Shown here: one piece after another, positions 22,544 through 64,000 of the stretch
Position numbering within the stretch: the first letter of the stretch is position 1
Layout of the letters: every line of letters starts with the position of its first letter
From: Camelus dromedarius
Taxonomy: Eukaryota
Direction of reading: 5' to 3'
DNA length: 64,000 bases
Assembly (NCBI RefSeq): GCF_036321535.1
Contig: NC_087436.1
Span: forward strand, 372,001 to 436,000
The notes under the pieces: generated by a model
Database searches by the model: none
What the model was told of the DNA's origin: nothing
What the model saw: the letters and a program-made list of their open reading frames with translations, nothing else
Translations under genes and position numbers: made by a program

Positions 22544-22582
22544 ACACACACACGCACACACACACGCACACACACACACACA
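22544..22582. repeat. Interrupted (AC)n microsatellite
   Basis: Directly visible. Confidence 0.95.
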
Positions 22583-40567: not shown

Positions 40568-42030
40568 TTTTTTCTTTTTTTTTTTTTTGTTTTTGGTCTA
40601 TTTAAAAATGGTTTCATTGAAGTCTAGTCAGTTTATAATGTTGCATCAGTTTCTTGTTTACAGCACAACACTTCAGTTATATAGGAATATACATGTATTC
40701 ATTTTCATATTCTTTTTCAACATAAGTTACTATAAGATATTAAACATATTTCCCTGTACTATACAGTATAAACTTGCTGTTTATTCTATACATAATCAGT
40801 ATCTGCAAACCCTCAACTCGCAAGTTATCCCTTCCCACACCATCTCCCCTCTGGTAACCATAGTTTGGTTTCTATGTCTCTGTGGTTCTGTTCTGTAGAT
40901 AAGTTTATCTTTTTGTTTGTTGGTTGTTTTATTTTTTTTTAGATCCCACATGTGAGCGATCTCATATGGTATATTTCTTTCTCTTTCTGGCTTACTTCTC
41001 TTAGAATGACATTCTCCAGGTCCATTCATGTTACTGCAAATGGCATTATTTTATTATTTTTTATGCCTGAGTAGTAGTTTATGGTATAAATATACTGCAA
41101 CCTCCTTTTCCAGTCATCTGTCAGTGGACATTTAGGTTGTTTCCATATATTGGCTATTGTAAATAGTGCTGCTGTGAACATTTGGGGGAAGGGGTCTTTT
41201 TGAATTAGGGTTACTTCTGGATATATGCCCAGGAGTGGGATTGCTGGGTCATAGGGGAAGTCAATTTTTTGTCTTTTGGTGAATCTCCATACTGTTTTCC
41301 ACAATGGCTCCACCAAACTGCATTCCCAGCACAGTGTAGGAGTGTTCCATTTTCTCCACAGCCTCTCCAGCATTTATGGTTTGTGAACTTCTGAATGATG
41401 GCTATTCTGACTGCTGTGAGGTGATACTTGATTGTAGTTTTGATTTGCATTTCTCTGATAATGATATTGAGCATTTTTTCATGTGCCTATTGGCCATTTG
41501 TATGTCTCCATTGGAGAAAAGTTTCTTTAGCACTTCTGCCCATTTTTGGATTGAGTTGTTTGTTTTTCTTTCTTATGAAGTGTAAAAGCTGTTTATATAT
41601 TCTGGGAATTAACCCCTTGACAGTCTCATTTATTGTAAATATTTTCTCCCATTCCATAGGTTGTCTTTTTGTTTTGCTTACTGTTTCCTTTGCTGTGCAA
41701 AAGCTTGTAAGTTTAATTAAACCCCACTTGTATATTTTTGCTTGTATTTCTATTGCTTGAGTAGACTGCTCTAGGAGAACATTGCTGAGATGCATGTCAG
41801 ATGTTTTGCCTACGTTTTCTTCTAAGAGGTTTGTAGTGTCTTGTCTACATGTTTAAGTCTTTAAGCCATTTTGAATTTATTTTTGTGTGTGCTGTGAGGG
41901 AGTAGTCTAACTTCATTGATTTACATGTAGCTGTCCAGTTTTCCCTACACCATTTTCTGAAGAGGCTGTCTTTACTCCATTGTATGTTCTCACCTCCTTT
42001 GTCAAAGATTCAATGACCAAAAGTTTTTGG
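40568..42030 (-). mobile_element. 5'-truncated LINE-1 (ORF2 C-terminus, 3' UTR, polyA), relatively young
   Basis: ORF fragments EWEKIF..., [14 protein letters not shown]..., PYDPAIPLLGIYP..., MFTAALFTIA..WKQPKCP; T tract at 40568-40595; frameshifted. Confidence 0.95.
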
Positions 42031-42165
42031 GACTATTCTTGATAATTTTTTTACCGATTCATTGATGGATGGATATTGTTTGTAACTTTTGGCTACTCTG
42101 AATGATACTGCTATGAATATTGATGTGCAAATTTTTGTGAGAATATGTTTTCATTCTGTTGGCTG

Positions 42166-42311
42166 TACAGTTGGCCCGCCATATCTGTAGTTTCCACTTC
42201 ATGGATCCAGATGGCTGATTGTAAAGGGACTCAAACATCCTTGGATTATGGAATCCAGGGTGGTGGGTTCCTGAAACCTATCCCCCGAGGATACTGAGGG
42301 ATGACCCTATA
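42166..42311. mobile_element. MER2/Tigger-like TcMar DNA transposon fragment
   Basis: tacagttggcccgccatatc...ggatactgagggatgaccctata, imperfect inverted ends with TA flanks. Confidence 0.7.
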
Positions 42312-42757
42312 TGTAGGAGTAGAATTGCTGAGCCATATGATAACACTAAACTTTTGAGGAAACACCAGGCTTTTCCAAAGAAGCTGCACCATTGCCCCTT
42401 TCCAATGGCTGCATAGTGAGGGTTCCCATTCTTTTGCCTCCTGACCGACACTTGTTATTGTCCGTGTTTTCATTATAACCATCCTAGTGGGTGTAAAATG
42501 AGATCTCATTTTAATTTTGATTTGACTAGTGATGCTGAGCAACTTTTCATATGCTTATTGGCCATTTGTGTATCTATTTAATTCCTTGGTAAATTTAAAA
42601 GTTGGGTCGATTTTCTTTGTATTGGTCAGTTGTAAGCATTTGATTTATATCCTGGATATTAGTCTCTTATTAGATATATGCTTTGCAAGTTTTTTCTACT
42701 ATTCTGCAGATTGTCTTTCCACTTTACTTTTTTTAAACATTAAGACAATTTCTTTAT

Positions 42758-42849
42758 AGGGGAGGTAATTAGATTTATTCATTTATTTTCTTAATTTATT
42801 TATTTATTGCCAGGCATGCACTCTATCACTTGAGCTACCTCCTTCCCCT
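42758..42849 (-). mobile_element. Internally deleted Vic-1-like SINE
   Basis: ggggaggtaattaga tail joined to gcatgcactctatcacttgagcta head. Confidence 0.6.
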
Positions 42850-45800
42850 TTCATTTCACGTTCTTGATGATTTCTTTTGTAACAATTGGTTTTAATTTTG
42901 ATGAAGTCCAGTTTATCTGGTTTTTTTTTTTTTATCACTTCTGCTCTTGGTATTGTATCTAGGAAACCATAACCTATGCTAGGACCACAAAGATTTATAC
43001 TATGTCTTCTTTTAGAAAGTTTATAGGTTTAGATTTTATGTTTCTGTCTGTGATCCATTTTCAATTAATTTTTATTTGTTATATACAATAGGGGGTTTCA
43101 GATTCTAAATTCATTCTTTTGCCTGCAGATACCCAGCTTTCCCTGCACCATTTGTTGGATAGACTATTCTTTCAATGGAGTGTTGTTGGCACCCTTGTTG
43201 AAAACTGACTGTAAATGTAAGATTCCCCCCTGGAATTTTTACTGTGTCTCATAGATTTATGTATCCAAACTTATGACAGTACCATAATGACTTGAGTACT
43301 ATAGATTTGTAGTAACCATTAAAGTGAGCCCTCCAACTTTGCTCTTCTTTTTCAAGATTGTTTTGGCTGACCTGGGTCCCTTGCACTTCCATATGAATTT
43401 TGGGATCAGTTTTTCAATTTTTGAAAAGAAGTCAGCTGGAATTTTGATAGCGATTCCACTGAATTTGTAGATCACTTTGGGGAGTCTTAACATTTTTAAC
43501 AATATTGTCTACTATTCCATGAACATGGGATGTCTTCCGTATATGTTGATCTTCTAAAACTTTTTCAGTGATACTTCAAATTGTTTAATGTACAAATCTT
43601 GTAAATTTTTGTTAAATGTATCTCCCATTTTATTTTTAATGCTGTTGTAAATGGAAAGGCTGAGCTTCTTAAGGGTGGGACTATATATCAATTTGTTTAT
43701 TTCTAGGATTCCTACACATCAAATACACTAGGTTTATATTTGCTACATAAATCTATCCACAACTCTTCCCTCCCCTGTGTTATAAGAAACCAAGACCCAG
43801 GTTAAGCTACCTGAACACCTATGTGGAAGTGAGAAATGAGACCCTTGGGTGGGGCTCTGTGCAGATGATACTGAGAGCTTATGTAGGATGGCTTCATCTT
43901 AATTTCTTTTAAACAATCCTTTCAGTGTATATAGTCAGATACATTAAGAACATGCCCTTTTGATGTACAGAGGAGCTAAGACTATCATTTTCAAGTAATT
44001 TCTAGTGAGAACGTTGTACTTGAAACCTAATTTGTATCTATCTTTGAAGATTTATGTTTCAGGAGCTTTGACTAAAGAACACCTGTCTTTATTCAATAAC
44101 AACAACTAAATGCTCAAACAACATGTAAGAGTTTGAGCTGTAACTGGAGGCAGTGCTTACCTCTCCCAATACACATGTGCTGATCTGCTCAAAGGGGTTC
44201 GTCCAACTATTTGTCATTAGTCTGTTGGACAAAGCCTTAAAACATTGATTTAAGGTTGCTGGAATGCAACATATTCTTATTAATACTAAGTAAGCCCATA
44301 TTGAGTGCTTACTGAATGTTGGGAATTGTCCCTCAGACTCACATGAATTTTATTTCTCTGAAAACCGTACATATTTCCTTGTTATTCCCACTTTACAGAT
44401 AAGGAGACTGAGGATTAAGTCTTCTCTCTTTTTGGGGGAGCTCATTATCAATGACTGGAAGTTGTAAGAAATAAAGATATTGATTCATCCTGAGAAAACA
44501 TTTTTCTGAGAGTCAGCATTGAAGAAGGTGACCACTGAAGAGGGTGATCATTGTTCGAGTGAGACGAGCCCCGTGTGGTACGGAGTCAGCATCCCAGTCC
44601 TGGACACGGCACTGTGCTGCATGGTGGGTGAGGCGGCGTGGCCGTGCAGGGAACGAGGATGCCGGGCCGTTGGGCTGTGCTCAGGCCTGGTGAGGCTTTC
44701 TCTGAAGAGCAGTGGACCGTCATTGACAGATTTTAAGTAGGGGAGTGGGGTGCTCTCTTAGATCACATTTGTGTTTGTAGAATGCTTGCAAACATTCAGT
44801 AGGCTCGGCAGAAAGTGATGTGACGAATCAGAGTAGGGTGGCTGCGAGGTGTAGCAGTGTTCAGTTTTCAAGTGGTTTTCAGTCCCAGGTTTGTGGCTCA
44901 GTAGCCGTGGCACTTTGGATGATGCACTCAAGGAAGTGAAACAATTTATCTAATCAATTAAAGCAGTGATGTACCGACTTCCCAAGACTGCTGTGGCAAT
45001 CCAGTGAGATTACGTGTGCGCAGTGTGCAGCGTGGTCCCCAGCACAAAGACAGTGCTGAGTGAGTGCCATTGAGTACCTGGTAGGACAGGTGTGGGTGGT
45101 GGGACTCCATGACTGAGGAAATCTGGGCCCTGAACGAGGGGTCCAGTCACATCTGTGAGTGATGGGCCTGAGCTGGGGTAGGGAGGGAGACCTTGTCCCC
45201 CGACCAGGGGCCCTGGGCAGGACTGCTATTGGAGGAGAACCGTGAAGTCAGCTCTTTGCAGGAGGAGTTTGAGGTGCCCTTGAGACATCTAAGTGCAATG
45301 TCACGAGCTCAAAGAGGAGGTCTGGGCCCGGGCTGTGCATTTTCCTATAATCTCAATCCCTGAGGATGCTGAGGTTTTATCACTGAACGTGAAGGCATAC
45401 TTTACAGGACAAGTGAATAGTAGTATCATCTCTGTCATCAAAGCTCACGTCTTTTTATTCATCACTCACTTTGTTAATTGGGTACTTACAGAGCTCACTT
45501 TACCACCCTCACTTGGGTTCAGGCTCCACAGTAAAGAGCTGGTGAGCCTCCCTCTTTTCCAGAAGAAGACACATTTAGCTGGTAGCCTTCTGTACCTCGC
45601 CAGACTTAGAATTTTAGTTTGTTGTATTAATTCTATTTTCTGTTGGCCATCTCCTGACAGGAGAGACGTTTTACCTCATGATCATGTTTCAATTAGCTGT
45701 TACTGAGAATTGCTGATCTAATCCATAGTGTATGTATTATATTAATTTTATACAGTATTTATCATTTTTCTGTCTTTGTCCTTTAATTTTGTATGCCCCT

Positions 45801-46631
45801 TCAATGTTCTATCCTATTTGGGGCGTTATTTTTTTTAATTAAAAAATGTCTGTTAGCAGTTAAGAAAACAAAAACAAAGAAAAATGCACATGATACCTAA
45901 ATTTAGAAAATATCTAGTGTGTTTTCTGTCTCGGCAATGGAGTGTTCTAGAATCTCGTGAAAACCTTCATTACACAAGTTCCTTGAAATGCTGATTAAGA
46001 AATAAGACCTTCCTTCCTCATCTTTCAAGCTACACAGCTAATTGTCAAGAAAGTGAGGGGAAATCCTCAGAAGCCAAGACAAACCAGAAAGCAGGGATTC
46101 TGGGAGATAAGCGAGCCTTAGAAGCCCTGGGGTGCCTGTTGGCTCCTGAACTGAGTTTTAGTTGCCCTGACAGGAGGGCAGGAGGTGAGCCCAAGTCCTC
46201 TCACACTGGGAGTTGGATGGCTGATCATATGTAAGGCCAAGCCCATCCCGAGAAGCCTGGTTTACTAAAGGTTGAACTTGGGAAAAAAATCCTCAAGGCA
46301 AGAAAGTAAGGAATGTCAATATTTTTGGAAGAGTGGAAAAATAACAAATCCAAAGTAAGGATATAGTTTAAATCTGTTCTGGCATGAGAGTGACCACAAA
46401 CTCCTGGCAGAAAAGCACAGCTATTCCTGGAATGAGAAGTTGTGTTTTGAGTGGATCAGTGAACAGCCATTCCGAAAAAGGCCTCCAGAGTATTGTGGAT
46501 CAAGATACTGGACCACAAACACATCTCTTCCAAAGGTCATTTAAATAACCAGAAATTTTTTAAAGGAAAGAAGCCACAATCATATTTCTATTTATTGACA
46601 TTACTATATGCTAGGAATTCAGAGGTAACTA

Positions 46632-47000: not shown

Positions 47001-47086
47001 ACTATGGAGTTGTCTCCTATTTTATGGACCTTACTTTCTCTTTGGGGAGACAAACTGACATAGTCGGGGAGCTTGGTAGAGGGAGG

Positions 47087-47795
47087 TGTTAGTCTGTTGC
47101 AATTAGCCAGGAGAGGAGATTAAGAAAGCAGTGAAGGGTGGGTGAACTTTTTAGCTGAGGACAGACAGTCTTGTTCAGTTGGCTTTTAATTGCAGGCTCA
47201 ATGAGTAGTCACTGGAGGGAATAGATCTTACGGAGGATGGACTTAGCTCAGGCCTCTTTAGAATGGACAAGTGAACCTGGAGAAAGACAGTCAAATCTGT
47301 GCAGACATTGAAGTTCACTTGAACGTGCTGTATCCCTGAGCCAAATATCGGACAAGAAGAAAGCACTTCTTGAGGACAGAGGAGTGGTTTTTAAGGTTCT
47401 CCAAGAATGAATCCCAGGGAACCGAGATGGCCAGTTGTCAAACTGTGACTTTGCAATTTGGAAGGTGTATCCACCAAGGTTATTGGCATTTTATGGGTTT
47501 CCATTTCTCGTTAATACATGTCAGGTGATGAGGACGTGGACACACGTGTTTGACACCTTGTCGAGGTGACTTTGGGTTCCTGCCTAGAAGCATGGGCACA
47601 GCTGCGGCTGCGTCATACATCTTGCCGCCCATCCCGCTCCCCGGCTCCGTGATCACTGCAGAGTCGTCCCTTGTTAACCTGTCCATCTCCTCTGTGACAT
47701 CATAACCCATGAAAAGACCAGAGCGTATTAACTTGACTTTCTTAAAGTCAAAAGAACAGATCTAATATGGAGTCAGATTTGTTTTTCCTATTTCA
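47087..47795 (-). mobile_element. Probable solo LTR related to the 24-kb and 48.5-kb LTRs
   Basis: - strand start tgaaataggaaaaacaaatctgactccatattagat matches the 5' end of 48549-49032; left boundary tentative, no TSD. Confidence 0.55.
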
Positions 47796-48051
47796 GTAGT
47801 GCCATGGAGAAGGAAGTTTGGGCAGCTTTTTGTAGGGTCCTGGAGGATTTCTCTCTCAGCGTCTGGGTGCCTCTATTGAAAACCCTTCATAGCTGTCTGG
47901 CATGCTGTAAAACCACTCCACCTGTTTTGCCCTGAAGATGTGTTCAGTTTATAACTCATCTCTACTCCTTGGAAAACAACTCAATAAAAACTCAGTTGGT
48001 TTTCCACCAGCCATGGGCAGGGATGAGGGATAGCATGTTACTATTTTATAA

Positions 48052-48093
<42 letters not shown>

Positions 48094-48161
48094 TAATAAT
48101 AATAATAATATTAATAAATAACAACAACAACAACAATAATAATAATAAAATTAATAATAAT
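48052..48161. repeat. (AAT)n/(AAC)n compound microsatellite
   Basis: Directly visible. Confidence 0.97.
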
Positions 48162-48548
48162 AAAAGAAGTTTTAAAACAGCACTGGGCACATAGGAGAGA
48201 GTCAATAAATGCTTCCTGGCTGAAATCAAAAGTGATGGCTCAGTGATTCCATGGCTGCTGTATTTGCTGAACTTGTTACTCCTTTGCTCCATTACACTTT
48301 TTTTAAACTGAAAAAGAAACACATGCATATGGTTAAAAACAATTCAAACAGCACAAAAATACACAAGTGAAAGAAGTTTTCCCTCATCCTCTGTTCTTCC
48401 AGCCGTCCCTGGAGATGCCACTGTTTACTATCCTTTGGGTGCTTTTCCAGATATGCTATGCACATTCCCACCTATGCATGTAAATTCCTTTAAAGTTTTA
48501 GTTATTTTTAACTTAAAGGGATTTAAATCCTCAAGTGGCTTCTGCCCG

Positions 48549-49032: not shown

Positions 49033-49369
49033 CTCCTATCTACCTAGCAAGCTGGGCACTGGAACTGAGGACAGCTCTCCCACACCCAGGAACCTACTGT
49101 GAGCCCTTGATGGTTACACTTGGGTTAGGTGTGTTTTACCCAGGAGGGATGGGACTATGCACCAAAAATCAGGCAGTCTGCTCTGTCTGGGGCTCTGATC
49201 GTGTACCTCCCGCTCCCCGCAAGGCCAACACCTGGGACAGTGGAGCTAAGGCAGAGATCGTGCCTGCCTGTTTCCCAGCCTGTAAAAGGGGAATATGTAC
49301 ACTTCCCAAGGTAGTTCTGAGAGACAACACCTGCGGGTGCTTGGTTCCCAGAGCTAAAGGAAACCCAGC

Positions 49370-50450
49370 TCCGCGTGGGGACAACGGGTGTGATCCCCGT
49401 AGGGGTTCTGCAGAGGCATCGGCTGGAGGGCTGGACCAGGGAGGTAAAACTTGAGCTGCGGGCCTTGAAGGGTTACAGAATGGTACAGAGGCAGGACTGC
49501 CGCCTCCTTCGGGGTGCCCCAGAAGTAAAGCTTTTTATTTACATCTCCGCTACTCCCCTCCCCTCTCCAGATCCCTACCTACTCTCTGCTCCTCCTGTCC
49601 ATCTGTCTCCCTCCACTTTTCCCCTCCTCTCCTCCTCCCCCATCTTCACCCTCCATCGATGCCCCAGCCTCTATCACAGAAACTAGAGGATCTCTGGCCT
49701 TCCTACGCATGCGCAGTCGGTGCCAGCTGGACCGCGGGTTGAAAGCTCCAGCTCCGAGCTGGGAATCGGCCACAAAGTCTTCTCAGCTCTGTCGCTCGGT
49801 AGGCCTTTGGCTCCTGCCCGAGGCCGGGGCCTCTGGCTGTGGAAATGCAAGGTGGGGGCTCCCGGGAAAGGGCTCAGGCGGCTGCGGGAGGGCGGTCCTC
49901 GTGTCAAAGCCCGCGAGGGAGCGAGTCTGCGTGTGTTCAGCTGAATTGCTCGGGCCAGACCCCTCTGCTCGCGCCACCTACCCCGGCGCCCCGGCCACAG
50001 CTGTCCAGTGCCAGGTGTGCACCTGCCGCTTCTCGCCCCAGCCAGGCTCCCCTCAGTCCGCGGCTGGCGACACCTTCCCCTCTCCCGCCCACGAGTCCTA
50101 TCCTCCCGGGCTTCCTCTCCTTGGACGCCGGCTTGTCCCTGCCCCTGTGAGGGCTGTGTCCCGGGTGGGCGGGTTCTGCGGACCCGATCTGGGGGGCGGG
50201 CGGCTGGGGCTCGGGCTGGCCTCCGAGCAGGGCTGCAGCCCGCGCCCCCCCACGCTTTCCCTGCCCTGTGACCACGGGGCTGCCCTCCTCTCCCTTTCCA
50301 GCTCCCTGAGGACAAGCTCAGCGGCATGCGCCCTGCACCACGGGCTTAGAGCCTCCGGCTGTAAAGCCCAGTTTCTCCTGGTGGAGTCTGGAAAAGGGAG
50401 CGCCAGTGCTGAGGGAGTTTCCGTCTCCCCCCTCAGTGTTTCTGCCCCAG
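49370..50450 (+). promoter_or_regulatory. TRAPPC9: CpG island / duplicated TRAPPC9 promoter and exon-1 region
   Basis: Largest GC/CpG-rich block in the window. NRF1-type CGCATGCGCA at 49706-49715, GC box near 50195, donor-like CAG|gtgtgc (~50013) and CAG|gtaagt (50450). 49441-49470 encodes EVKLELRALK, matching recalled EVKFELRALK of the long human TRAPPC9 isoform. Lies 4 kb upstream of the coding exon. Confidence 0.8.
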
Positions 50451-50844
50451 GTAAGTACCTTGAACAATTTCAGGTGTTATGATGGCGGTGCTTGTTGATG
50501 TCACGTGTTTTTATAGTGCCAGGAATTACAGTGTTGAAAGCAGGGCTTGGTTCAGTTAAAAATGAGCTGAAGGCATGAGGCTGTGTCATGCTCCTTCCTT
50601 CCCTTTCCCAGGGTGAAACGTGTGACAGTCGATTTTAAAAACATAGTTACAGTCCCTAACTAGCCCAGCCCAGCTAGTGTGTGTTAACAGGAACAGCACC
50701 ACCAGAGGCGTTGGAGACCCAGGGACATTGCAGTCCTAAAAAGCTCCTGGCACAGTTTAGTTTGTTTTGGTTTTTTGTTTTTATTAAATTGTGGGGTAGA
50801 CTAGTTGTATATAGGGAAAAATAATTGTCAAGGAATATTTTTTC

Positions 50845-50990
50845 ATATAACAGCTTTATTGTGATATTGTTCACACACCATGAAGTCCACCCATTTAAAT
50901 GGTACAATTCAGCAGCTTTTAGCATATTCACAGTGGTGCAACCATTATTATTCCAGAACGTTTTCATCACTTCAGAAAGAACAGTGGAAA
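50845..50990 (-). mobile_element. L1 3' end fragment
   Basis: cagctttattgtgatat...cccatttaaatggtacaattcag...ttccagaacgttttcatcac. Confidence 0.75.
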
Positions 50991-51479
50991 TGAATGACCT
51001 ATCCACCCCTCCCCAGTGGTGGTTCTAAAGAAGTTTCTTGGCTGTTCCTGACCATAAATTAACTTGTTACATTCCATGAAAAGCCTGGTAGGAATTCTAA
51101 TCAGAATTGCATTGAATCTGTCTATCAAAACAGGAAGAATAAATGTCTTTATGGCATAAACTTCTTCTACCTATGAATATATCTGGGACCCTATCTTTTC
51201 ATCTCTCCAGATCCTGGCCCATGGGAAGTCCTCACTAATTGTTGGGCTTGTGAATGATGAGATTCTATACATCATTAGTTGCCACTGTAGCCTTTTACAG
51301 AAGAGAAAAGTAACCTCAGTGAAGCCAAGTGACTGTCTGATGGTCAGAAAGAGTGACAGTCATTGCTGGAGTGATCCAGTGGACTTGGTGCTTGTAACCA
51401 GAATTCTCCACCACCTACAGCTAAGGGGATAAGAGTGTTCTTTAATTTTATCTTAATGGCGTTGATTTTATTTATACTT

Positions 51480-51750
51480 ATTTTTTAAAATTATTTTTAT
51501 TGAAGTGTAGTCAATTTACAATGTTAGTTTCAGGTGTACAGCAGAGATTCAGTTATAAACATATGCATATGTATATACATTTGTTTTAGATTGTTTTTAG
51601 CACAACTCATTACAAGAAATTGAATATAGTTCCCTGTGCTATATAGTAGGTCCTTGTCATTTATTTTATATTTATTAATGTGTATCTGTTAATCCCCCCT
51701 TTCCTGCCTGCTAACCACAGTTGGCTTTCTATGCCCATGAGTCCATTTCT
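51480..51750 (-). mobile_element. L1 3' UTR fragment related to the 40.6-kb L1
   Basis: ttgaagtgtagtcaatttacaatgtt...ttccctgtgctatata shared with 40616-40770. Confidence 0.75.
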
Positions 51751-53947
51751 AGCAGCATCGTTTTTCCTAGTAACATACGCTGGTTGACTGCTTTCAGCTT
51801 CAGTAATTCCATCTTATCTGTGGGCACTTTTCTTCTGGTGGGGCTTTATGTGGTTTGCACACATGATAATAGAGATTTGTACTTGGGAGAACTCCAGGCC
51901 TCGTGTAGTTCCTGGAACAGAGTGCCCACTGAGTTGATGCTTGAACTGGGAAAAAAGCAGAGTAAGTGTTGGAATTTGCACAATGGTTGAGACTTCCAGG
52001 TTTCTATAACCTGTTTAGCCCACATTAATATTGGCTGCACCCATACTGGGTAATTTGGTGGAACTTCATGTTATGGTGGTGTAGAGACAGGGCCTTGTAT
52101 GCTTATTCTCTTTCCTTTTTCTAACACTCATTCTCCTGGGTCTCCCAGATCCTCCCCCAGCAGTGCCCAGGGCTGGCTTGATGCTGCGCTGAAGCAATAA
52201 TTGTTAATAAGGCCCTTTCCTCATCTCTTCTGAACTTCCGTTTCTTTCTCTGCACAATGAGGGCTTAGACTAGATAAGTGCTTTTCAGTTTCTTTTAAAG
52301 CCATGTTTCCTTTGAGAAACAGAAAATGCAAATCTCTCCTCCCATCCCAACCCTTTAGATTTTGATATGTCCTCCAGGGAGTGACATAGCTCTTTGTGGA
52401 AAATTGATGTGATTGTGATTCCAGGTGGCACAGAAAAGACTCTTCAGAAATTTATTGCAGGGAGAGGGCAGGAAAGGGGCAGCGTGTCACACTTTCTAGT
52501 GTGAGCACTGGAACAGGGACTTGGGTTTAAATACGGTGTCTGAGGTGGCCTCTAATCTTGTACAATATGATAAACTTCTCTACCTCAGTTTCTTAATGTG
52601 TCAAGTTGGGGTGATAATATTTTAAGGCTTTTGTGAAACATTATACACATAAGCCATCTGTGTCTCGGTAGAAACAAGACCTGCTAGGGAGTCAGGGATT
52701 TCTTTAAGAAAAAATCTTGTCCATAGCACTCTGTCGGTGTGTATTTTGAATTACCTGGAGGGCGAGGGTTGAGTCTAAAGTCCATCGTGGGGCAGGTGGC
52801 CGATAGTTCTCTGTGCCCCAGATTGCCCCCTCCTCCCCAGTCCTCTTCCTCAGTCCAGGATGAAGTTCCCTAGTAGATTTACACAGAGGTCTTGTGGAAA
52901 TGGCTTTTCATTTTATTGTTTCACGAAGGAGGGCTGCCATCATGATCTCTGTGGTCAGGTTTTGGTGACCTGAAGGCTATGCAATTGGGGGTTTCTATTA
53001 AATAAAAAAATATTACAAATAGAAAATTAGAACAAGGGTGGTGACAGGGGCTCTTGGAAGTGGGGACCATTAGCTTTGTTAGCTTCAGGTGTAGTGGCCT
53101 TTGGCCACGAGGACCCATCCTCGTGCTCTGAAGTTGGAGGGATTAGTGGGTTCAGTGGGAATGTTAACTGAGTGTATCTCATGGGCTAGGCATTGTCGTA
53201 CTTGTACTGTGTGTTCCTTATTTGAGACAATGAGCTCATTTAACCTCAATAGCCTCTTTAAAATATTAGACTTTTTATTTTGAGATGTAATGTAGGTTCC
53301 CCTGTACTTGTAGGAGATAATATGCGGAGGACCTATGGACACTTTGCCCAATTTTCCTTAATGGTTCCATCTTGCAAAGTTGGGGTACAATTCATTACTG
53401 ACTTACTAACCCTTTCAGGTTTGTGTTATTGCCCTCATTTCTATCTATGATTAAACTGGGGCTTAGAGAAGCACACAGGCCTGCCCAGGTCACCCACATG
53501 TTTAGTGTGTAGTCGGGTGTAACGTGGGCTTGGGATTTCCAGGAAGTACCATTATGATGGTCTGTGGCAGGGAGCAGCATTCACTTTGCTTGTTTATTCA
53601 TTCATTGAACATTTATTGAGTAACCTCTGTGGGTCAGATGCTTTCACAGGCTTATCTGATTCTTCAGCAGTACTGAGAATCAAGTATTGTTTTGTTTTTT
53701 TAATCTGAGAAAATTAGCTCTGAGAGTTTATAACACCCCTCAAAGGAAATATAGCTCATAAAGGAGGGATAGTAAATTTGTACAGTCCCCCCTCTTTATG
53801 CAGGTGGTACCCTAGGCAATTTACATTTGCAAACTTCCGTAATCCAGATATATTCTTGTAAGGCAGGGATTTTTTTTTAATTGAAGTATAGTCGTTTACA
53901 ATGTTGTGTCAATTGCAAGGTGTTTTTTGAATTTTGAATTAAAAAAT

Positions 53948-54074
53948 ATTTTTTGAGAAGGGTAATTAGGTTTATTCATTTGTTTCATTTTTTAAAATGA
54001 GGTACAGGGGATTGAACCCAGGACCTCGTACATGCTATGTATGTGCTCTACCACTGAACTGTACCCTCTTCCCC
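53948..54074 (-). mobile_element. tRNA-Ala-derived SINE (Vic-1-like)
   Basis: - strand ggggaagagggtacagttcagtggtagagc...gaggtcctgggttcaatcccc (A and B boxes) with A-rich tail. Confidence 0.85.
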
Positions 54075-54507
54075 AAGGCAAGTTTTCTTATCCATTATTC
54101 TGCAGTTAAGGAGTTCAAATAAATTGGTGTTGAAATCCAGATCTTTTGATCCTACTGCGGTTCTTTTCTTTATAATCTGCTGAAGGGGGGTGGGGAAAGC
54201 AGTTCCTTTGTTCATTTCTTTATTCAGCAGTGTTGAGCACTGACTTTGCATCAGGGTCTTGCTAGGTGCTTGGAAACAGTAAACAAGAGATGACCCTTCT
54301 GTGCAGGGGCAGGAAGCCTAGACCAAAAGCTGGGTAATGTGATTCGAGCTACGGTATCCATGTACAGACTCTGAGGACAAACTGTACCCCCGGCTTTGCT
54401 TGTGCTTCCCTTTCCTTCTGGCTGGTACACACCAGGTCACCGCAACCCAGAGGCGCCCGCAGCCCACAGCACAGTATTTACCTCGATCTCCTCTCCCCTC
54501 TCTGCAG

Positions 54508-55079
54508 GGCCTGCAACATGAGCATCCCTGACTACGTGCAGTGTGCTGAGGAATACGAGACTCTCCCCGTGGTCTTCCAACCCGTGGGGATCATTTCAGA
54601 CGACAATTTCTTTTGCATCTATAAACGAATCTCCTTGGTGAGCCAGATCAGCCCGTGCGGCTCCCAGTGGGCACTCTGTATCCACTACAGGCACCACTAT
54701 GCGTTCGAGAATGCGTGGAGTGACTTCCAGACCCACCGCACGGTCGTGGGCCTTGTCACCATTACCGACTGCCTCTCGGCCAAGGCCTTCGAGAAGCTCC
54801 ATGTGCAGAGGAGCTGTATGGCACCTCGCTTAATGACTCTCAGCTCTTTGTCTTTGTGCTGCATGGGGAGGTAGCCGAGCAGCCGCGCACCGACGTGGAC
54901 TTCAAACTACGAGGACTGCAGGATGGTGGAGAAGAGGATCAAGGACTTCACTGAGTCACTCTTCATCTTGCTCAAGTCCAAGTGGCTGGATGGGACCCCA
55001 ACAAGTCTGGGGAAAGGATCCCCCTCCTCTGCACCTTGTTTGAGAAGGAGGACTTCATGGGACTGGACACAGACAGCAG
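54508..55079 (+). pseudogene. TRAPPC9: TRAPPC9 (NIBP) first coding exon, duplicated unprocessed pseudogene copy
   Basis: [38 protein letters not shown]...[17 protein letters not shown] matches the recalled TRAPPC9 N-terminus ([38 protein letters not shown]). Homology continues across frameshifts to ...[11 protein letters not shown]. Acceptor ctctctgcag|, ATG at 54518, donor CAG|gtaagt. Frameshifts near 54809, 54903 and 55000; stop at 54872-54874. Confidence 0.96.
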
Positions 55080-55315
55080 GTAAGTCTACCTGGAGGCCCG
55101 GCCACCCTGGCTGTGTGCCGGGTTCCTTCCCTACATCCAGGAAGGGATCAGCAAGGAAGAGGGCTGTCTTGTACCCAAGGGCGGAGGGAGGTGCAGCCCG
55201 ACGGTTTACAGACATTTAAAAGTGAATCTGCCTTTGTTTCAGAGAGATCCTTTTAGGGTCAGTGTGGAGACTTCCTCCAGCTTTTCAGCCAGGACCCCTG
55301 GTGGGACCCCTGGAG

Positions 55316-55642
55316 TTGCTGTCCAATAGAGTAGCCACAGCCACTGATGCTATGAGCGCTGGGGAAGAGGCTGGTCTGAGCTGAGATGTGCTGTAGGTCA
55401 AATGCACATCAGACGCTGAGACTTGTCTAGTAAAAAGTATGTAAACTATCTTGTTACTTTCATATATTGATTACATGTCAAAATGATACTATTTTACATA
55501 CAGCAGATTAAGTAAGATCTGTTCTTAAAATCAGTTTCTAGTATCTGTTTTTTGTTTGTTTGATTGGTTCTTTGTTTACCGTTTTAAATGTGGCAACTGA
55601 AGCTTTCTTTAAATGGCTCTCATTTCAATTTTGTTAGGCAGC
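55316..55642. mobile_element. MER33/MER3-like hAT-Charlie element
   Basis: gctgtccaatag..tagccac...tgagatgtgctgta...ttaaatgtggc. Confidence 0.7.
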
Positions 55643-58600
55643 CTGTCCTGGGACATTCTCATCCCTTTGCTTATAGATGAGATGCTGAATCCCGAGAGGC
55701 CGAACGAGTCACTGGTTGTGCTGGGTCTGGAGCCGGTGTCTCCTGCCTCCCAGGCCCAGCACCTGCTGGGTTCAGGCCCTCTCTTCCTCCCCGACAGCCA
55801 TCATGCCAAGTTAGGACATCAGAAACACCTCCAGGGAATTCCGGATGAACTCCTTATGCAGGGAAAGGCGTATCACGGAGTATGAGACAAAGCAGGGAAA
55901 GATTCATCCTCACTTTGTCCCTGTGATTAAGTCAACGGCCCCACTTTTGCCTTGGAAGTGCAGACGAGCTCTCCTGGGCTTACTACCCCCCACCTTCTGC
56001 TCTGTTTCCCCGTGTATCTATCATGCTTTCCCTCGGTCAGAAGAGGTGAGATGCCTTTGCCCAGAAGTCGTCCCCCTTTGCTGGGGAGATTGAGGGAAGC
56101 TGTGCCCCCACGGCCAACGGCCTCGGGCCTTGAGTCTGGAGGGCACTCATGGCGGTACCACAGGTGACGGTCGGAGGACCTGGCACGTGCTGCCGGGCCC
56201 GCTGTGGAGGCAGTGCTCTGTGATTCATGAACTTACCTAAGATCAAATCCTACTTTCTGGTTGTTGGTAAGTTGGAGGAGAAAATGCCAGAGAATTGATA
56301 AAAAGAAAGTCCAGACCAGCCCTGTGAGTGAGAGGCACACGGGGCCCGAGTCCCACTTGCGTGTGGTGCCTGGCGGGCTCTGGATGAATTTTCTGTTCCT
56401 CCCGGACATACCTCTATGACTTTAGTAATGGGTGAGACATGTAGTGGCCATGATCTGTATTTGTCCTCGCAGGGCCCTGTGATCTACACGCCCGCACCCC
56501 CTTCTGCTCCTTGGGGATGAGGTGGCAGGTTTAGGTGCTTGGGCACTGCTATGGGCACAGCTGCCAGCATAGGGCTACACCGAGGCTGGCTCCGTTCACC
56601 TCAAATGTCACCTCCTGCTGAGCCCCCAGGCTTTAGTCAAGGTAGCTGCATCAGTGCAACGTAAGCAGGGACCATGTTCTCTCCCTGGACAGACTGGTGG
56701 GTGAGCAGTGGAAGCCTGGAGTCCTGCCCAAGCCCCATGGCTAGTGCCTCCTCTTTGTCATAGGAGGCACTGGTGACATTTTTGCTCAGCAACTGTTTGG
56801 TTCTGAGTCTCCAGACCCACCAGAGAATGCCAGCTTGTTTTTGCCTTTTCAACTCTGCCCTTGGGATTTGGCGGAGTAGCTGGATGTGTGCTTAGCCCAT
56901 AGTGTTGACACTGTCACCATTGTTTACCCAGAACCTCGTGTACCAGGCATGGCTCTCGGCATCAAAATACAGCAGCCAATTAAACTCCCTCCTGATGGAT
57001 CTGTCTGTTTTGGTACCATAAGGGTTTAGCCAGCATCTGAACGTCAGTGAGATAACGCGGCCAGTGAGCTCGGGTCAAGCACGTTCTCCTCCAGTCACTT
57101 TTACTCCATTGTTGCTTTTACTATTCCACAGTCATTAATTTTTAAAACAATGCTTTGGTGCAGGAGCAGAGACTAATTCTCTCCTGCTACTCTCGTTGGG
57201 AGTGAGTAAAACTGTCCAGCCTGTAATGCGACCACATTTTGTGGCTTAAAAGCTGCCTAGATGCATGTATGTGGAGTTTTGGTTAGGGGCACTGACGACG
57301 TTGGGATCCCCAAGCAGCGTTGCTCCCCTCAGGCCCCTGCCTTCCCTGGAGCAGGAGGTGAGGGTGGGTCTCACCATCCCCGCGTTCCTGGCCTCACGCA
57401 CTCACGTAAATTCTTGTACTTGCTGTCAAAGTCATTCTTGTTCTTGTGTGTTTCTAATTTTCGCTTGTTCCTCTTTTCCTTTTTCTTTATTCCTTTTTCT
57501 CTTGTACCGTGCAGTTGCGTCTGAAAAGGTGGCTGTGCATATCCTGCATTGGAAATAGCTAGATCGCCCTCCGTGCTGTCTCCATTGCTTTAAGGAGCAG
57601 AAACATTTCAGCTGCCTTGATCCATGCATTATCCTAGTCATCTTGTTATTCTCTAATTTTTTGGAATATTGCTTTGTTAGCACATCACCCACTGGTGTTT
57701 GATACCTGTGAAAATCTTTGCTTTGAGGAACCTCTTTGGTCCTCCTTATATTTGGTGACAAATGCACCCTTATTCAATTAGTTTGATTGTTTTGAAGAAG
57801 TGAGATGCGAATTGATTTAGGCGGCTGTTGAGGGATTCTTTTCATGGAGTATTTAATCTTGTCAAGTCAAAGTCTGCAGCATCTTGCTCGATTCCTGCTT
57901 TTACACAAACGTGCTCAGCACGCGGTTCCTGGCTGTCTCTGTGTGAAGTGCGTGACGGCGCTTCCTGACCGGCAGTCACTGGTGAGGAAGCGGCAGGCTC
58001 GGGGGTGAGCAGCTGCAGGGGACATTGTTGGAGGAATCAGTCACCGTTTGGTTATTTTTTTTTTTTGCATTCAACTTCCCCGTGCCATTTACTTTATTTT
58101 TCCTTCATAAAGGGGCAGAAGTGGGTCTAAAATCCATGCCACTCTTTTGTTCCCTTTACGAGGCTGGTTTTTCTGAGTACCAGGACAACATGGCCTTCTT
58201 CTAAGTAGCTGGCTCACATGGATCTGGTGGACACAGGGACTATTAAAGGGACCGTAGCTTCCTCTCTGCTCCAGCCAGTGGGCATTCAGAGCCGGGTCTG
58301 TGGTTTGCCTCAGCAGCCGTGCAGGCCTCCCTGCACCTGCCTTTACTTTTAACCCATGTTGGCATTAAAGAGCTGACTCCATGTTTGTTGCAGCTGACGT
58401 CCCCCACTGACGGCCGTGTCGTTAGTTTGCGGTAGTGAGTCTCCAACCCCAAGTCAGCCATGAAGGAAGATGTTTTGGCCAATCTAAGACCTTGGATTCT
58501 CACCCCTACCCTTGTTCATCTCACCCAGGGGAAGGGTTTGGCCACCACCATCATGCTGATCATGAGGCCTTGTTTCTCCTTTCATGCTCTAGTCCAAATG

Positions 58601-61600
58601 TGGACACTTCATCCTTCACTGACTTGGTCTCGCTTGATACAGGCCAGACATTCTGAAAGAGTCCATCACATTCTCGGGGGGAACAGAACAGAAGTAAGTC
58701 TCGCAAGTAGAAGGAGTCTAGGCTGTCCGGGTTGGCAAATGCAGGCTGGGATCTGTGATTGGTGGGCTGTGCCCTGGACACAGGTCTTTCCCGTGGCTCA
58801 CGAGCGCCCAGGGGTCGGAGTGAAGACAGCCTTGCTTGGGCTTCTCCATCCTCATCTGCTCAGTGGCAAGTGTGTCTGCTAATAGGAGCTCCAACAGACC
58901 TCGGGACCTTCAAAGCTCAGATCACGGGAGAACTTTGAGTCCCTTCTCCAGGGCCTCCTTTGTGAGAATCCAGTGCCTTCTGAGGTGACCGGTGGCAGGA
59001 GATGCCTCCCCCTCCAGGGAGCACCCTTCGGAGGACTGTGACTCAGTGCACCTTGCTGTGAGCTTGTGGGGATCCGGCCGTCGTCCCTGCAGAACCAGTC
59101 TTGAGATGGGCTTAGCGACGGAAATGACAGGACTAATAATCCAGGCCAGGGCTGGAGGGAGGGAACAGGGGAAATTGAATGTGACCTCAAACACCTAGGT
59201 GAGTGCTGGGTCTGTTACTAAAATGGGGAGCATGGGAGGTACCTTCCATAAATTGAATTCCAGAGTAAATCTTGGACATGAGGCATTTTTAAGATGCGAT
59301 TTTTCGTCCAAGTTTGGACTTCATAGAGGCACTCGGGTCAATGAGCCTGGGGCTGAGTTGAAGGAGCCGGACTAGAGATACACGTTGGGAGTCGTCATTC
59401 TTAGCTGGTGTTCACAGCCGCGCATGTGAATTAGATCATCTTGAGAGCTGCAGACTGAGGCTGAGGGGGGGCAGGGCTGTGCCTGGGTTGGAGGAAAGCC
59501 CAGACCATGCAGCTTTCGTGTGTCAGTCAGCGGCGTTTGGGATTTTCAGGGCAATGTCATTTATCCTTAAGGGGCCGGGGGGTGGGCAGGGCCAGTCAGG
59601 AAGAAATCTGAATGGAGGGTCGTGGCCACGTGTGTGTCTTGGGAAGTTGCAGAGTCTGCAGGGTCCGGGAGGGTAGACTCCTCAGAAGCTGGAGTTGGAT
59701 TGGGGCGTGGGTTGAAGATAGTCACACTAACATATCAGGGAGGGAAGAAGGCCTAGGGAGTCCCCGCTCTTCCTGACTCGCTTTCCAATGAACAGAAGGC
59801 AGACAGAGGATCTGAGGTGAGAAGGGATGGGCGCTGGGAGAGGAGCCAACCTGGAGAATGGTGCTTGAAAAATTCTGGAATAGTCTCCCTGCAAAATAGA
59901 GGTTAAAAAAATCCAGAGTCTTAAGAACATTGATAGTGACTGGGGAGGAGGCAGTTGTTTTTCTGGCCTCCTAAGGGTAAGGCATGTATCCAGGGATACA
60001 CAGAATATTCGGGCAGTCTATTCCGGGCATTTGGTACCGGGTAAACAGCACAAGTTTAAAGGGGGACAAGGGCAGCGGAGGGAAACTAGCCAGGCCCCGT
60101 GTCAGGTACCAGTCGGCCGCCCTACTTGCGTGTTGCATTCACATCCATGCCTCCCAGGTGGGCGGTGGCAGCCCCCTTTTGCGGATTGGCAAGCCTTCTC
60201 AGAGGGGTTAAGTTATTGGTCCATTTAGAGGGTAGTAAATGCTGTAACAGGATTCAAGCAGGGTCTTGTCAGACTTCAAGGGTGTGTTTTCTCTACTAAT
60301 TCCGGTACCTCACTGTTGTACGTAAAATTGTGAAGTGGGTCAGTTTTGGGGCCTTTCAGAAAAAGTACGATTTAAATGCCTCAGGACTGATTCACAAAGC
60401 TCTGTGTTCTTTGATTGTTCTGAAGCACCGCAGTGTTTTACGCCCCACAGAGGTAAGGTCTTACTCCTTTGACGATGAAGTGGTTGCAAATGATGTACAG
60501 GTTCAAAACCAGACTTAGCAGCTTCTGAAGGGAAACTTTCCAATTCTCCCTTGATAGACTTTCTTCTACGGGATGTAGCTGTGCTGCAGCATAGGCCTGA
60601 GCTGTCCGTATGGATTGTGGGTTTGATATCCAAATTTAGCATAAAACAGTCAGATGAAGAAAATCAACGTTCACAATTTATTTTTGGGTTTCATTAGACA
60701 AGATATACTATCAGGTAATGGCCCATATAGCTAATGAAATTGAGGACAGAACATTGAATTTCTTACTTCTTATTTAGAGTTTTCTTACTGCATAAGTTTG
60801 CCTGCTTTGGAACATCAGCTCCTCCACAAGGGCGCTTGTCAGTTTGTTGGTGTGATTGCATTTACACAGTGAATGTAATCTGGGCTTCCTCAGCCCAAAC
60901 TCTCCAGTGCAGAATCACGGGCTGTAGCCATCTCTTAGTCACGCAAAAACTTCTAAAATTATATGATGCCAGAAAAGAAAGAAGAGAGAGAGAGAGAGAT
61001 TGCCTTTATCAAAATTCCTTTCAATTCTGACTGCAAACTGTTGTTGAGCAGCTCTGGTTTCCTTTGGATATGAATATATACATTTCTTTGCATGTAACCT
61101 GGGTTTTGGACTAGAACACCAAGTCCTTGCTTTCCGCAAGCCACAATAATAGTAGCCAAATTGCACACATGTGAAATATTTTATTATTTTTCTGAGAAAG
61201 AATCCTTGAATTTGGGACTTCAGGTGTTATTTTTGCTTTTTGCTTCTCCCACCCCTCTTGTAATATCTCACTCCTTCCCAAGTGGCCCCCAATAGGTCGT
61301 GGTCCCAAAGGAGCAAGCAAACACCCAGTTGGTCCCCATGCAGTGCTGCTATAGAGGGAGCCCTGCCAAGACCTAAAGGATATTATCAGAGAGGGCTTCC
61401 TGGAAGAAATGGGCTCTACATTCATTTGTGAAGACAGAGTAAGGGTCAGCCAGTAGAAAGCATGAAGACTGTGGCTCATGTGGCAGAGCAGCCCGGGTAG
61501 AGGCCTGGAGGCTTGTGCGGTGGGGACTCGGGGAGAGTGCCATGTGTGGTCCAGGGTTGTGGGTGCCCCTGCTGGGGAGGACACTGATGAGGGCCTGGGG

Positions 61601-62155
61601 TGGAGGGCTTTCGAAGAGCTTGGGTTTTACTAGAACTGACAGAGGAGGCAGTGAAGGGTGTCAGCAGGAAGTGACCCTCAGGAAAGGTACTTCTGGATTT
61701 GCTTCTGATATTCTACAGTAAGAAAGGTCGGGGCGGACGAGAGCAGGTCTTGCTGTCCCTTTGAGACCCACCCCATCATTCATTTATTCATAACATGCAC
61801 ACTTCTGAGTGTCTAGGGGAGAGAGGTTGGACCCACATTAGTAAGCAAAATATTCCTTGGGAGCTTAGCAGTGTCAGAGGTTGACTTAGCCTAGAATGTT
61901 CTAGGAACAGAGGAACAAATTGCGGAGGTTGGAGGGAGGGAAGGCTTCCTTGAGAAACAGTCAAAATGAGCCTGGAGGCAAGTGGGAAGTAGGAGCAGAT
62001 CAGGGGGCCCCTGAGGTCACTGGGGACCTGGGTACTGAGGTGAGGATGGGCGAGCAGGTTCGGGGGTGGGGCTAGAACTCTACCAGGGAGCCTCTGAAGG
62101 GTTTGAAGTGGGGTGATGTAATCAAATTTATGCTTTGGGAAGGCTGCCTTGGCTC

Positions 62156-62158
<3 letters not shown>

Positions 62159-62202
<44 letters not shown>
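62159..62202. repeat. (GT)22 microsatellite
   Basis: Directly visible; paralog at 1439-1463 is shorter and interrupted. Confidence 0.97.
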
Positions 62203-62204
<2 letters not shown>

Positions 62205-63347
62205 CGGGGAAGGGGGGGGTTGCCACCAACTGGGGAGTGACATTAGAAGACCATTCACAGGCTGGGAGGCCACAAGTGGGAGAGGGTCGTTGGGGCTGCT
62301 TGGGGACGGCAGGGGCCGTGTGGATGCCGGATTTCCTTATGGGGAGGGCTTGTTAGCTGGGCCGCCCTTGCGGCGCCTTTTGGCTTGAAGAAAACAGATG
62401 GAGGCCGCCAGGTGGACTTTCCTCTTCTCTTCTTCCCTGCCTTGTGTGATGATCTTAGCTCAGCCAAATTTGGAAGAGAAGAGCTAAGTTCCAGGGTAGC
62501 CCAGGACTTTGTTGAGCTCGTCCGAGTGAGATCTGATAGGATTTATGTTTGTGTTCAGATCTGCATGTTCACTTAGCTAGAAACGTCCTATCTTTTGAAT
62601 TTCCATAGGGGTTTTTACTCTTGATAAAGATTGCTTTCTTGGTGAGAGGAAATTTAATACAGCTGTTGTCTTTCTCAAAAAAATCATATCTTTTAAGAAA
62701 TTTAATATTCAAAAAATAGGAATATTTAAAAATGATAAAGTAAGGCTTTGGTGTAGTTTCTTTGGTTTCCTAGTTAATGTGGACTTAGAGCCTTTGCATT
62801 ACTTAATAGCACATCCTTGTCAGTATTTAAAGGGCTGTTAGCGCCCCAGGCCCCACCTCTCAAAACATCATTAAAGTTTGCTCTGAAATAGTGAGGTCAT
62901 AAAAGTTTTGTTTGCAGAAGCCAAACACTTGGTTTATAATATGAAGCATAGCTCCATTTTTAAAATAATAATAGGTTCAAAATTAAGAAAGTGGAAGATA
63001 ATTGAGTTTTTTAAAAGCTGAAACATAATCTTTCTTGTGCTAATGTTGAACTGGAAATTTCGAAAATAAAAATCCTACTGTAATAACATCTACGTGGAAT
63101 ACATATATGCTTTCCCGTTTGAAAAATAAGTGCGCAGTGGTTTTCGAAGTCAGGAGCATTCCAGCTCAGATACTGGCATTGATGGTTGCTGGTTTTCAAT
63201 GGCAGAGCCTAAATTTGCCTTCTTAGCTTTTTTTTTTTTTTTGTAGTGAGAGGGTTGAGTAGTGCTTTGCCAGCATGATTTTGGGGCAATTTGGGGGCAG
63301 ATGTTGTGAACCAGCAGTGAGATATTTCCATGCATTTTATTTTCTGG

Positions 63348-63468
63348 ACATCACCAAGGCACATGTGGGGTTTGTGCCTGCAGGCTGGGATGCTGTAGGA
63401 CTCCCTGGTCCATCACAGTTTTGTCCTGGAGCTGCTCCGGTCAGTGAATGATTTTCTGTGGCTTCGAG
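63348..63468 (+). pseudogene. TRAPPC9: TRAPPC9 exon 3 remnant, copy B
   Basis: [31 protein letters not shown] with an in-frame TAG; acceptor ttttctgg; donor gtaagg; same 121-nt length as copy A. Confidence 0.93.
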
Positions 63469-64000
63469 GTAAGGTGGTCTGATGCACATGATCAGATGTG
63501 TAGTTAAAGTGCTATTACATGAAATAAGAGAAACCTAGAAACATGAGGGAGGAGAATTGGCTGAGCTGATATCGGTGGGGAGTCTTCTTAGGTGACTCCC
63601 TCCCCGTGATTCCTGCCAATATCCTCCCCAGCCCTGCACGGTAGTCCTGCCGAAGCAAGCATGCACTTTGCTCAGAAACGGACTGAATTTCCTTGTGCCT
63701 CTGTTTGTTGGCTTTTTTTTTAAAGCACATCTTGCCCTTTGCTTAAATGCCACCCCTGCTAGTCACATCTTACACTCATTCTTCTGGAAGTCGTCCATAT
63801 ATAGCTGCTGAATGGATGAACTGAATGTAGTATCTTCATGTAGTGGAACATTATTCATACGTAAGGGTGAATAAAAAGGAAAAAAAAATAAAGGGGAAGA
63901 TGAAAAAGGCCACCTGTCCTGGGAAGTCCACCCTGACTGCTCAACCCACCCTTTTCCCTTTGAATCCCCACCCCTTATGCTCCACTCTAGTCTTTTTGAT

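Follow-up and report, generated by a model that had tools for sequence, protein, structure and literature searches.

The region considered here lies on contig NC_087436.1 of the dromedary (Camelus dromedarius; assembly GCF_036321535.1), at bases 49370–63468 of a 64,000-nucleotide stretch (positions 372,001 to 436,000, forward strand) that was analysed as a whole and is called the window. It was shown to be the 5′ part of a ~60.7-kb unit; such units, each a partial and unprocessed duplicate of the gene TRAPPC9, follow one another head to tail in an array. In a self-BLAST of the window, bases 1–3294 repeat 60723–64000 at 88.99% identity over 3332 columns. This sets the unit length at ~60.7 kb, so the window holds one unit and 3.3 kb of the next; neighbouring units within it are 89% identical. 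The parent locus (C20:2909001–2980680, 71.7 kb; C numbers denote contigs) was located by a genome search with the Pfam family PF08626 (TRAPPC9-Trs120) and aligned to the window. Genome-wide, the PF08626 cut-off was passed only at C20:2929037–2929180 (a stricter first look, in which weak matches may be missing). This is the parent's exon 3, which is intact on C20. Collinear blocks of window and parent measure 0.3–10 kb and are 68–88% identical, the long ones 77–80%. The copied segment spans ~53 kb of the parent (offsets 3962–57050), beginning ~1.9 kb ahead of the CpG island and ending in intron 6. Introns and promoter were copied collinearly along with the exons, as in a duplicated (unprocessed) pseudogene. 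A processed (retro-)pseudogene was ruled out, introns 1–6 being present at parent-like lengths.

The unit begins with an upstream flank (47797–48547) and the promoter island (49232–50981), followed by intron 1, exon 2, intron 2 and exon 3. After exon 3 it resumes at the window start with former introns 3–4, exon 5, exon 6 and intron 6 as far as 47743. Exons 1, 2, 3, 5 and 6 thus stand in the parental order. At the junction between units, parent offsets 56341–57050 align to window 47005–47743, and offsets 3962–4229 to window 47797–48068. Sixty-eight gene models from Camelus bactrianus, C. ferus, C. dromedarius and Vicugna pacos were mapped onto the window, and the number of models using each exon is given with it below. 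The boundaries of the exon 1b acceptor and of the exonised stretches in intron 2 are approximate. A slash marks a splice boundary, and o/e is the observed-to-expected CpG ratio. The main landmarks of the unit are as follows.

1–3294, plus strand: tail of the preceding unit, overlapped by the window start; 89% match to 60723–64000.
2624–2744, plus strand: decayed TRAPPC9 exon-3 copy A; acceptor GG at 2622–2623; no models of 68.
3632–3640, no strand: deletion point, with ~3.1 kb of the parent gone (offsets 21057–24163), exon 4 (offsets 22925–23056) included.
47744–47796, no strand: head-to-tail unit junction, a ~50-base filler between the parent intron-6 edge and the parent upstream edge.
49501–50300, plus strand: CpG island, a copy of the TRAPPC9 promoter island; GC 0.63–0.72, o/e 0.61–0.69; aligns to the parent island.
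49690–49851, plus strand: exon 1a-like segment (E1a), start undefined; donor GCAAG/GTGGGG; 20 of 68 models.
50301–50450, plus strand: exon 1b-like segment (E1b), acceptor approximate; donor CCCCAG/GTAAGT; 15 of 68 models.
54508–55079, plus strand: TRAPPC9 exon-2 copy; acceptor ctctgcAG at 54506–54507, ATG at 54518–54520, donor CAG/GTAAGT with GT at 55080–55081; 62 of 68 models.
63348–63468, plus strand: decayed TRAPPC9 exon-3 copy B; acceptor GG at 63346–63347, in-frame TAG, deletions; donor GAG/GTAAGG kept; no models of 68.

The duplicate resembles its parent in having the promoter island, exons 1, 2, 3, 5 and 6 and the introns in the same order, at a DNA identity of 77–84%. It differs in holding the first 53 kb only, in being tandem and in existing in hundreds of candidate copies. 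It also differs in its broken exon-2 frame, in its exon 3, with a dead acceptor and deletions, and in the loss of exon 4 from this unit. Exon-4-like residues are present in at least one C. ferus model (P0107/P0156), so other units keep exon 4.

A sequence-only reading of the window had held that the CpG island, the exon-2 acceptor, the ATG and a CAG/GTAAGT donor are intact, and each was found where that reading had placed it. The island, at 49.5–50.3 kb, is the sole strong one of the window. A CpG island has a length of at least 200 bases, a GC content of at least 0.5 and an o/e of at least 0.6. Bases 49701–50200 lie above these composition thresholds, with a GC content of 0.69, an o/e of 0.69 and 41 CpGs (whole-window o/e 0.31); the parent island has a GC content of 0.8 and an o/e of 0.85. 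Parent CpGs have turned into TG or CA at 18 of 70 sites in the island versus 202 of 412 in introns 2, 4 and 5 (Fisher p = 2.6e-4), and are kept at 32 of 70 versus 106 of 412. CpG decay in the island runs at about half the rate found elsewhere in the unit; no other element decays more slowly than its surroundings. Five other diverse promoter copies (L069–L073), sampled besides the window and the parent, have a GC content of 0.68–0.73 and an o/e of 0.56–0.84. Such preservation fits islands that may have escaped most germline methylation over a long part of their existence. Erosion has occurred nonetheless, with 59 CpGs in the window's 1,000-base region versus 98 in the parent's 1,100 bases. The E1a donor is present in the parent and in four of the five other copies, and the parent reads CCAC/GTAAAT where E1b has CCCCAG/GTAAGT. 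Inside the island, at 49700–49725, there is a GCGCATGCGC-like palindrome, which we take to be an NRF1-type motif; the parent and one copy (on C12) have it without a mismatch.

In exon 2, the acceptor, ATG and donor of the window are identical to those of the parent gene. Identity to the parent is 83.5% over exon 2 and 84.3% over the first kilobase of intron 2. The ATG frame stops after 118 codons and contains five deletions relative to the parent; together with TAG codons in exons 3B and 5, these rule out a functional TRAPPC9 gene. A 3-base deletion and a frameshifting 1-base deletion are common to all 29 diverse copies and the window. The sequence-only reading had predicted an amplified family of fusion mRNAs or lncRNAs, and the shared 1-base deletion excludes an mRNA that carries the TRAPPC9 frame. 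Two deep clades, ~20% apart in exon 2, have since diverged. The clade to which the window belongs later acquired a 5-base deletion, which in combination with the 1-base deletion brings the TRAPPC9 frame back after 32 codons. In the other clade, two 3-base deletions stand in place of the 5-base one, and the frame is never restored.

The exon-3 acceptor was claimed to be GG in both copies, as was indeed observed. Where the parent has ttcccAG/ACATTAC, the window reads ttttctGG/ACAT in copy B and ttttccGG/ACAT in copy A. The predicted skipping of this exon agrees with the models, none of which maps to either copy. Across 18 copies, GG was found in 16 (as CTGG or CCGG) and CCAG in two, and a 13-base deletion is common to all 18. 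The GG acceptor is, on this comparison, inherited rather than a coincidence of two copies, since 14 of the 16 copies beyond the window's two also read GG. The two copies with CCAG, L085 (C26:25673884–25673964) and L089 (C72:1477853–1477933), still have the 13-base deletion. They have probably returned to AG through CpG decay of CCGG: this sequence contains a CpG, so that CTGG and CCAG would both be expected decay products.

The lesions of exons 2 and 3 also bear on the origin of the family. Because the exon-2 deletions are shared by 29 of 29 copies and the 13-base exon-3 deletion by 18 of 18, the copies are shown to descend from a single founder, which, judging from these shared lesions, was already a pseudogene with its exon-2 frame lost and exon 3 broken. 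The family consists of about 350–400 candidate copies on many contigs, in camels and alpaca. Searches returned 353 candidate places for exon 2, 407 for parent intron 2, 351 for the parent promoter, 357 for parent exon 3 and 346 for E12.9, a downstream exon described below; these totals are candidate counts, and the best 40 places per probe were scored. Copies are 76–84% identical to the parent. With parent probes, the parent matched at 100% and every other match among the best 40 per search at 67–81%, so the copies are about equally distant from the parent. With 40 scored exon-2 copies at 95% identity or above and units that stand head to tail, the TRAPPC9 family belongs among segmental duplications (copies of 1 kb or longer, 90% or more identical) and tandem arrays. 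When the exon-2 frame was matched against proteins, 105 were found. Short look-alikes among them came only from C. bactrianus, C. ferus, C. dromedarius and Vicugna pacos; matches from all other species were to ordinary TRAPPC9 and did not exceed 68% identity.

At 95–100% identity, at least 40 copies form the window's own subfamily, and 30 close copies differ pairwise by 2.6% on average. On C3, C6 and C84, exon 2 and E12.9 lie ~42 kb apart at 99–100% identity to the window, and on C6 the next unit is ~60.9 kb away and 93% identical. The near-identical blocks occupy C3:118.79–118.83 Mb, C6:82.19–82.29 and 84.13–84.23 Mb, and C84:0.40–0.45 Mb. This arrangement indicates old tandem arrays that appear to have been recopied recently as multi-unit blocks between chromosomes. 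Such near-identical blocks make paralog-specific reads very hard to assign. On contigs of known length, many copies lie within a few Mb of the contig end and some are internal.

The exons used downstream of exon 2 were read from the same 68 models. They comprise the exon-5 and exon-6 copies, which were recognised by tblastn with horse and pig TRAPPC9 and by the parent alignment, and several segments of former introns.

~55929–56045, plus strand: former intron-2 exonised stretch; donor GAAGAG/gtgaga after 56045; 14 of 68 models.
~56516–56737, plus strand: former intron-2 exonised stretch; 20 of 68 models.
8945–9070, plus strand: segment 8945, former intron 4, with AG and GT signals; parent without the donor GT; no plus-strand models of 68.
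12892–13047, plus strand: E12.9, former intron 4; acceptor tttcAG, donor CAC/GTGAGG; 13 of 68 models.
13579–13704, plus strand: E13.6, former intron 4; donor CAA/GTAAAT, parent CTAAAT; 10 of 68 models.
E16.2: 5 of 68 models.
16926–16982, plus strand: segment 16926; acceptor ctacAG, donor TGA/GTAAGT; parent without GT; 1 of 68 models.
17702–17824, plus strand: E17.7; acceptor intact, GA at the donor in unit and parent; 3 of 68 models.
18509–18583, plus strand: E18.5; GC donor in unit and parent; 6 of 68 models.
18854–18974, plus strand: TRAPPC9 exon-5 copy; AG and GT kept, in-frame TAG, 1-base deletion; 35 of 68 models.
E24.0: 3 of 68 models.
25680–25803, plus strand: TRAPPC9 exon-6 copy; AG and GT kept; 9 of 68 models.

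In the window unit, AG and GT boundaries are present at E1a, E1b, exon 2, E12.9, E13.6, segments 8945 and 16926, exon 5 and exon 6. At E13.6, 8945 and 16926, the parent has no GT where the unit has its donor. Splicing of exon 2 to downstream segments, as the sequence-only reading had foreseen, is borne out by models in which exon 1 or exon 2 is spliced to exons at 12.9–25.8 kb. The description of these segments as foreign to TRAPPC9 does not hold, as they are collinear with its locus. Of the two segments that had been singled out, 16926 is the last coding exon of a Bactrian-camel isoform (P0129) and 8945 was found in no plus-strand model. Several junctions are legible in the proteins. Exon 2 is joined to E12.9 (DTDSR/SWSLL) in P0007, P0145, P0107 and P0156, exon 1a to E12.9 in P0108–P0110 and P0010, and exon 2 to exon 5 in P0147. 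Exon 5 or E24.0 is followed by ...ACNMSIPDY..., which marks the exon-2 acceptor of the next unit, in P0009–P0013 and P0147. Models of three to four species agree on the boundaries of E12.9, E13.6 and E16.2, exons that have no protein homology.

Two further observations concern transcription itself. The Bactrian-camel gene LOC141577670 has at least 14 protein isoforms over ~50 accessions, and NCBI Gnomon is not known to make alternative isoforms other than from transcript alignments. In addition, six runs recorded as RNA, from two studies, hold 0.40–0.47 of 55 sampled 31-letter words of exon 2, which can be taken as a hint only; the best probable DNA runs hold 0.53–0.69. The parent mRNA is only 83.5% identical and would therefore be unable to supply the words found in the RNA runs.

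Taken together, we consider it likely that the family gives rise to spliced, mostly non-coding pseudogene RNAs from surviving CpG-island promoters. For transcription and rerouted splicing from the window's own unit, our confidence is lower. In the mechanism proposed, a surviving island promoter would still start transcripts. With exon 3 unusable, and exon 4 deleted from this unit, the strong donors of exons 1 and 2 would pair with the next usable acceptors, namely those of the exon-5 and exon-6 copies and of cryptic exons in former introns 2 and 4. Transcription would often run on into exon 2 of the next unit. The products would be alternatively spliced, mostly non-coding pseudogene RNAs, chimeric only in that they combine exons of TRAPPC9-derived DNA in new ways, also from one tandem unit to the next. 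The spread of the family would be due to unequal exchange inside arrays and to multi-unit blocks recently copied from one chromosome to another, with no detectable selection on RNA or protein.

Several observations weigh against this proposal. Since 17 of 29 diverse copies have lost the exon-2 donor, many units would be unable to splice from that exon. In the window unit, E17.7 and E24.0 have no GT donor and E18.5 has GC. The palindrome of the island is perfect in only one of six copies, with one mismatch in the window and the four others. All 68 models are predicted, and they do not amount to 68 independent observations, because a small number of loci contribute many of them as isoforms and some stem from earlier ab initio annotation. 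None comes from the window unit, the best exon-2 match being 89%. No protein from a transcript assembly was found across exon 2 and E12.9, the 20 + 3 matches all being genome annotations. Finally, carry-over of genomic DNA from a repeat of ~350–400 copies could explain the words in the RNA runs.

These observations lead to the first alternative, a silent, decaying array in which the splice signals are leftovers, the models are artefacts of multi-mapping or ab initio prediction, and the RNA words are genomic DNA. The exon-2 signals are what such an array would leave. Among close copies, AG, ATG and GT are kept in 30 of 30, though these copies are only ~3% apart. Among diverse copies, 25 of 29 retain the acceptor AG, 27 the ATG and 12 the donor GT, two subfamilies reading GA and AT at the donor. 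All three signals survive together in 7 of 29. The neutral expectation for seven given bases all surviving at 16.5–20% divergence from the parent is 0.21–0.28; signal survival thus matches the chance level, with no selection. Diversity among the 30 close copies is likewise the same in exon 2 (0.0267) as in its flanks (0.0264), and stops interrupt the ATG frame in 30 of 30 close and 24 of 29 diverse copies. These comparisons gave no evidence of selection on the putative RNAs or on any protein they might encode. A silent array nevertheless accounts poorly for an island that decays at about half the rate of its surroundings and keeps its island character in all five other copies. It accounts no better for exons that recur with the same boundaries in three to four species, for a single gene whose 14 or more isoforms would need transcript support, or for exon-2 words in six RNA runs from two studies. 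A silent array is considered unlikely.

Read at its most ambitious, the spliced-RNA proposal would make the family a full camelid counterpart of the primate core duplicons. The family would then make up ~1% of the genome (350–400 copies of 54–60 kb; the camelid assembly that holds the window is 2.3 Gb in size). It would have islands unmethylated in the germline, abundant read-through RNAs spanning several units, and RNAs, or short TRAPPC9 N-terminal proteins from the few open copies, with a distinct function, such as one in the germline or in chromatin at chromosome ends. This extended version is regarded as improbable.

Could the family encode new proteins? On this alternative, short proteins with the first ~100 residues of TRAPPC9 would act on TRAPPII or in a new role. 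The restored frame of the window's clade speaks for it, as do the five of 29 diverse copies in which exon 2 is open from the ATG; all five, however, have a dead GA donor. Between clades, the ratio of nonsynonymous to synonymous differences per site (pN/pS) is 0.54 in the TRAPPC9 frame versus 0.90–0.99 in shifted frames. Codon constraint, which pN/pS values of 0.43–0.77 in the TRAPPC9 frame might suggest, was rejected, since the ratio is equally low past the shared frameshift (0.56, versus 0.86–1.06 in shifted frames), in comparison with the clade whose frame is never restored. This low value past the frameshift points to GC- and CpG-rich third positions as the cause, that is, to a composition effect rather than constraint. 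With the stops and the equal diversity of exon and flanks also against it, a coding family is very improbable.

Least credible of all, and contradicted by the collinearity, is a true chimeric gene in the style of core duplicons, in which the TRAPPC9 promoter and exon 2 would be fused to exons of other genes, as the sequence-only reading had suggested: models do join exon 2 to sequences that match no TRAPPC9 protein, but the downstream segments are TRAPPC9 exons 5 and 6 and intron pieces, the aligned blocks of the unit lie in order with the TRAPPC9 locus, the novel exons fall in former introns 2 and 4, the E12.9 acceptor and donor are both already present in the parent intron, and the non-collinear parts amount to an insert (29062–36267), the stretch 38316–46630, smaller gaps and the ~50-base filler.

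The insert (29057/29062–36267, ~7.2 kb by the parent alignment) has no counterpart in the parent. It is flanked by direct repeats of ~490 bases (29057–29546 and 35775–36267) that are 89% alike, and its core is AT-rich (GC 0.28–0.32). It looks like an old insertion of the long terminal repeat type. The 8.5-kb stretch 38316–46630 is not collinear with the parent and is interrupted by repeat-like inserts, and smaller gaps occur elsewhere. Open frames at 41026–41852 (minus strand), which we take to be remnants of ORF2 of long interspersed nuclear element 1, sit where collinearity with the parent is interrupted. Only two tRNA-like Rfam matches were found in the window, at 39522–39592 (minus strand, 35.2 bits) and 53998–54068 (minus strand, 31.1 bits); they are probably tRNA-derived short interspersed nuclear elements in former introns. 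An inverted repeat (24088–24518 versus 48935–48550, 72% alike) probably represents two copies of an interspersed repeat.

The family of spliced pseudogene RNAs proposed here can be compared with three known systems. Primate core duplicons carry transcribed, often fused gene families such as NBPF, NPIP, LRRC37, TBC1D3 and GOLGA. The camelid family is similar in that a promoter-bearing gene fragment was amplified to high copy number in one lineage, large duplicated blocks lie on many chromosomes and the models have many splice forms. It differs in that all model exons lie in TRAPPC9-derived DNA, without exons of other genes, in that it has no open frame under selection, and in that it consists mostly of regular head-to-tail units of ~54–60 kb rather than mosaics. 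Its working mode would be like that of a transcribed duplicated pseudogene, resembling core duplicons in scale and spread only.

In the repeat-rich regions of alpaca chromosomes, the main text of one study, which also deals with satellite regions, describes multicopy, pseudogene-like expansions of NEK10, uS3m, ACTB and ABHD17A (PMC13751797). As described there, these are likewise camelid, gene-derived, fragmented and multi-copy, and lie in repeat-rich chromosome regions. They are absent or reduced in camels according to that text, whereas the TRAPPC9 family has models in camels and alpaca; TRAPPC9 has no occurrences in the main text of that article. The third system is the annotated camelid TRAPPC9-like models themselves. 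They belong to the same family, with 76–89% protein identity to the window's exon-2 frame, and the same exons map. They differ in being automatic protein-coding predictions, and the evidence given here points to frames that are remnants. In a table of another study, the TRAPPC9-like family figures only through its differing copy number between camel annotations, with 0, 4 and 8 genes (PMC10568864). Searches for articles on TRAPPC9 in camel and alpaca, on the LOC numbers and on camel segmental duplications yielded no account of the family's structure or RNAs.

These results have several implications for camelid genomics. Dozens of RefSeq protein genes of camels and alpaca named "TRAPPC9-like" or "uncharacterized" most likely represent spliced pseudogene RNAs. 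Where TRAPPC9-like models enter into counts of gene families, these would compare annotation depth and not biology, as may be the case for the table in PMC10568864. Care is also needed with reads and single-nucleotide polymorphisms assigned to TRAPPC9 or its look-alikes in camelid studies. The growth of a 53-kb gene fragment to several hundred candidate copies represents a clear non-primate example of a duplicon that carries a promoter. If its RNAs are confirmed, the family would provide a natural experiment on how splicing is re-routed after the loss of an acceptor, carried out in hundreds of variants of one fragment.

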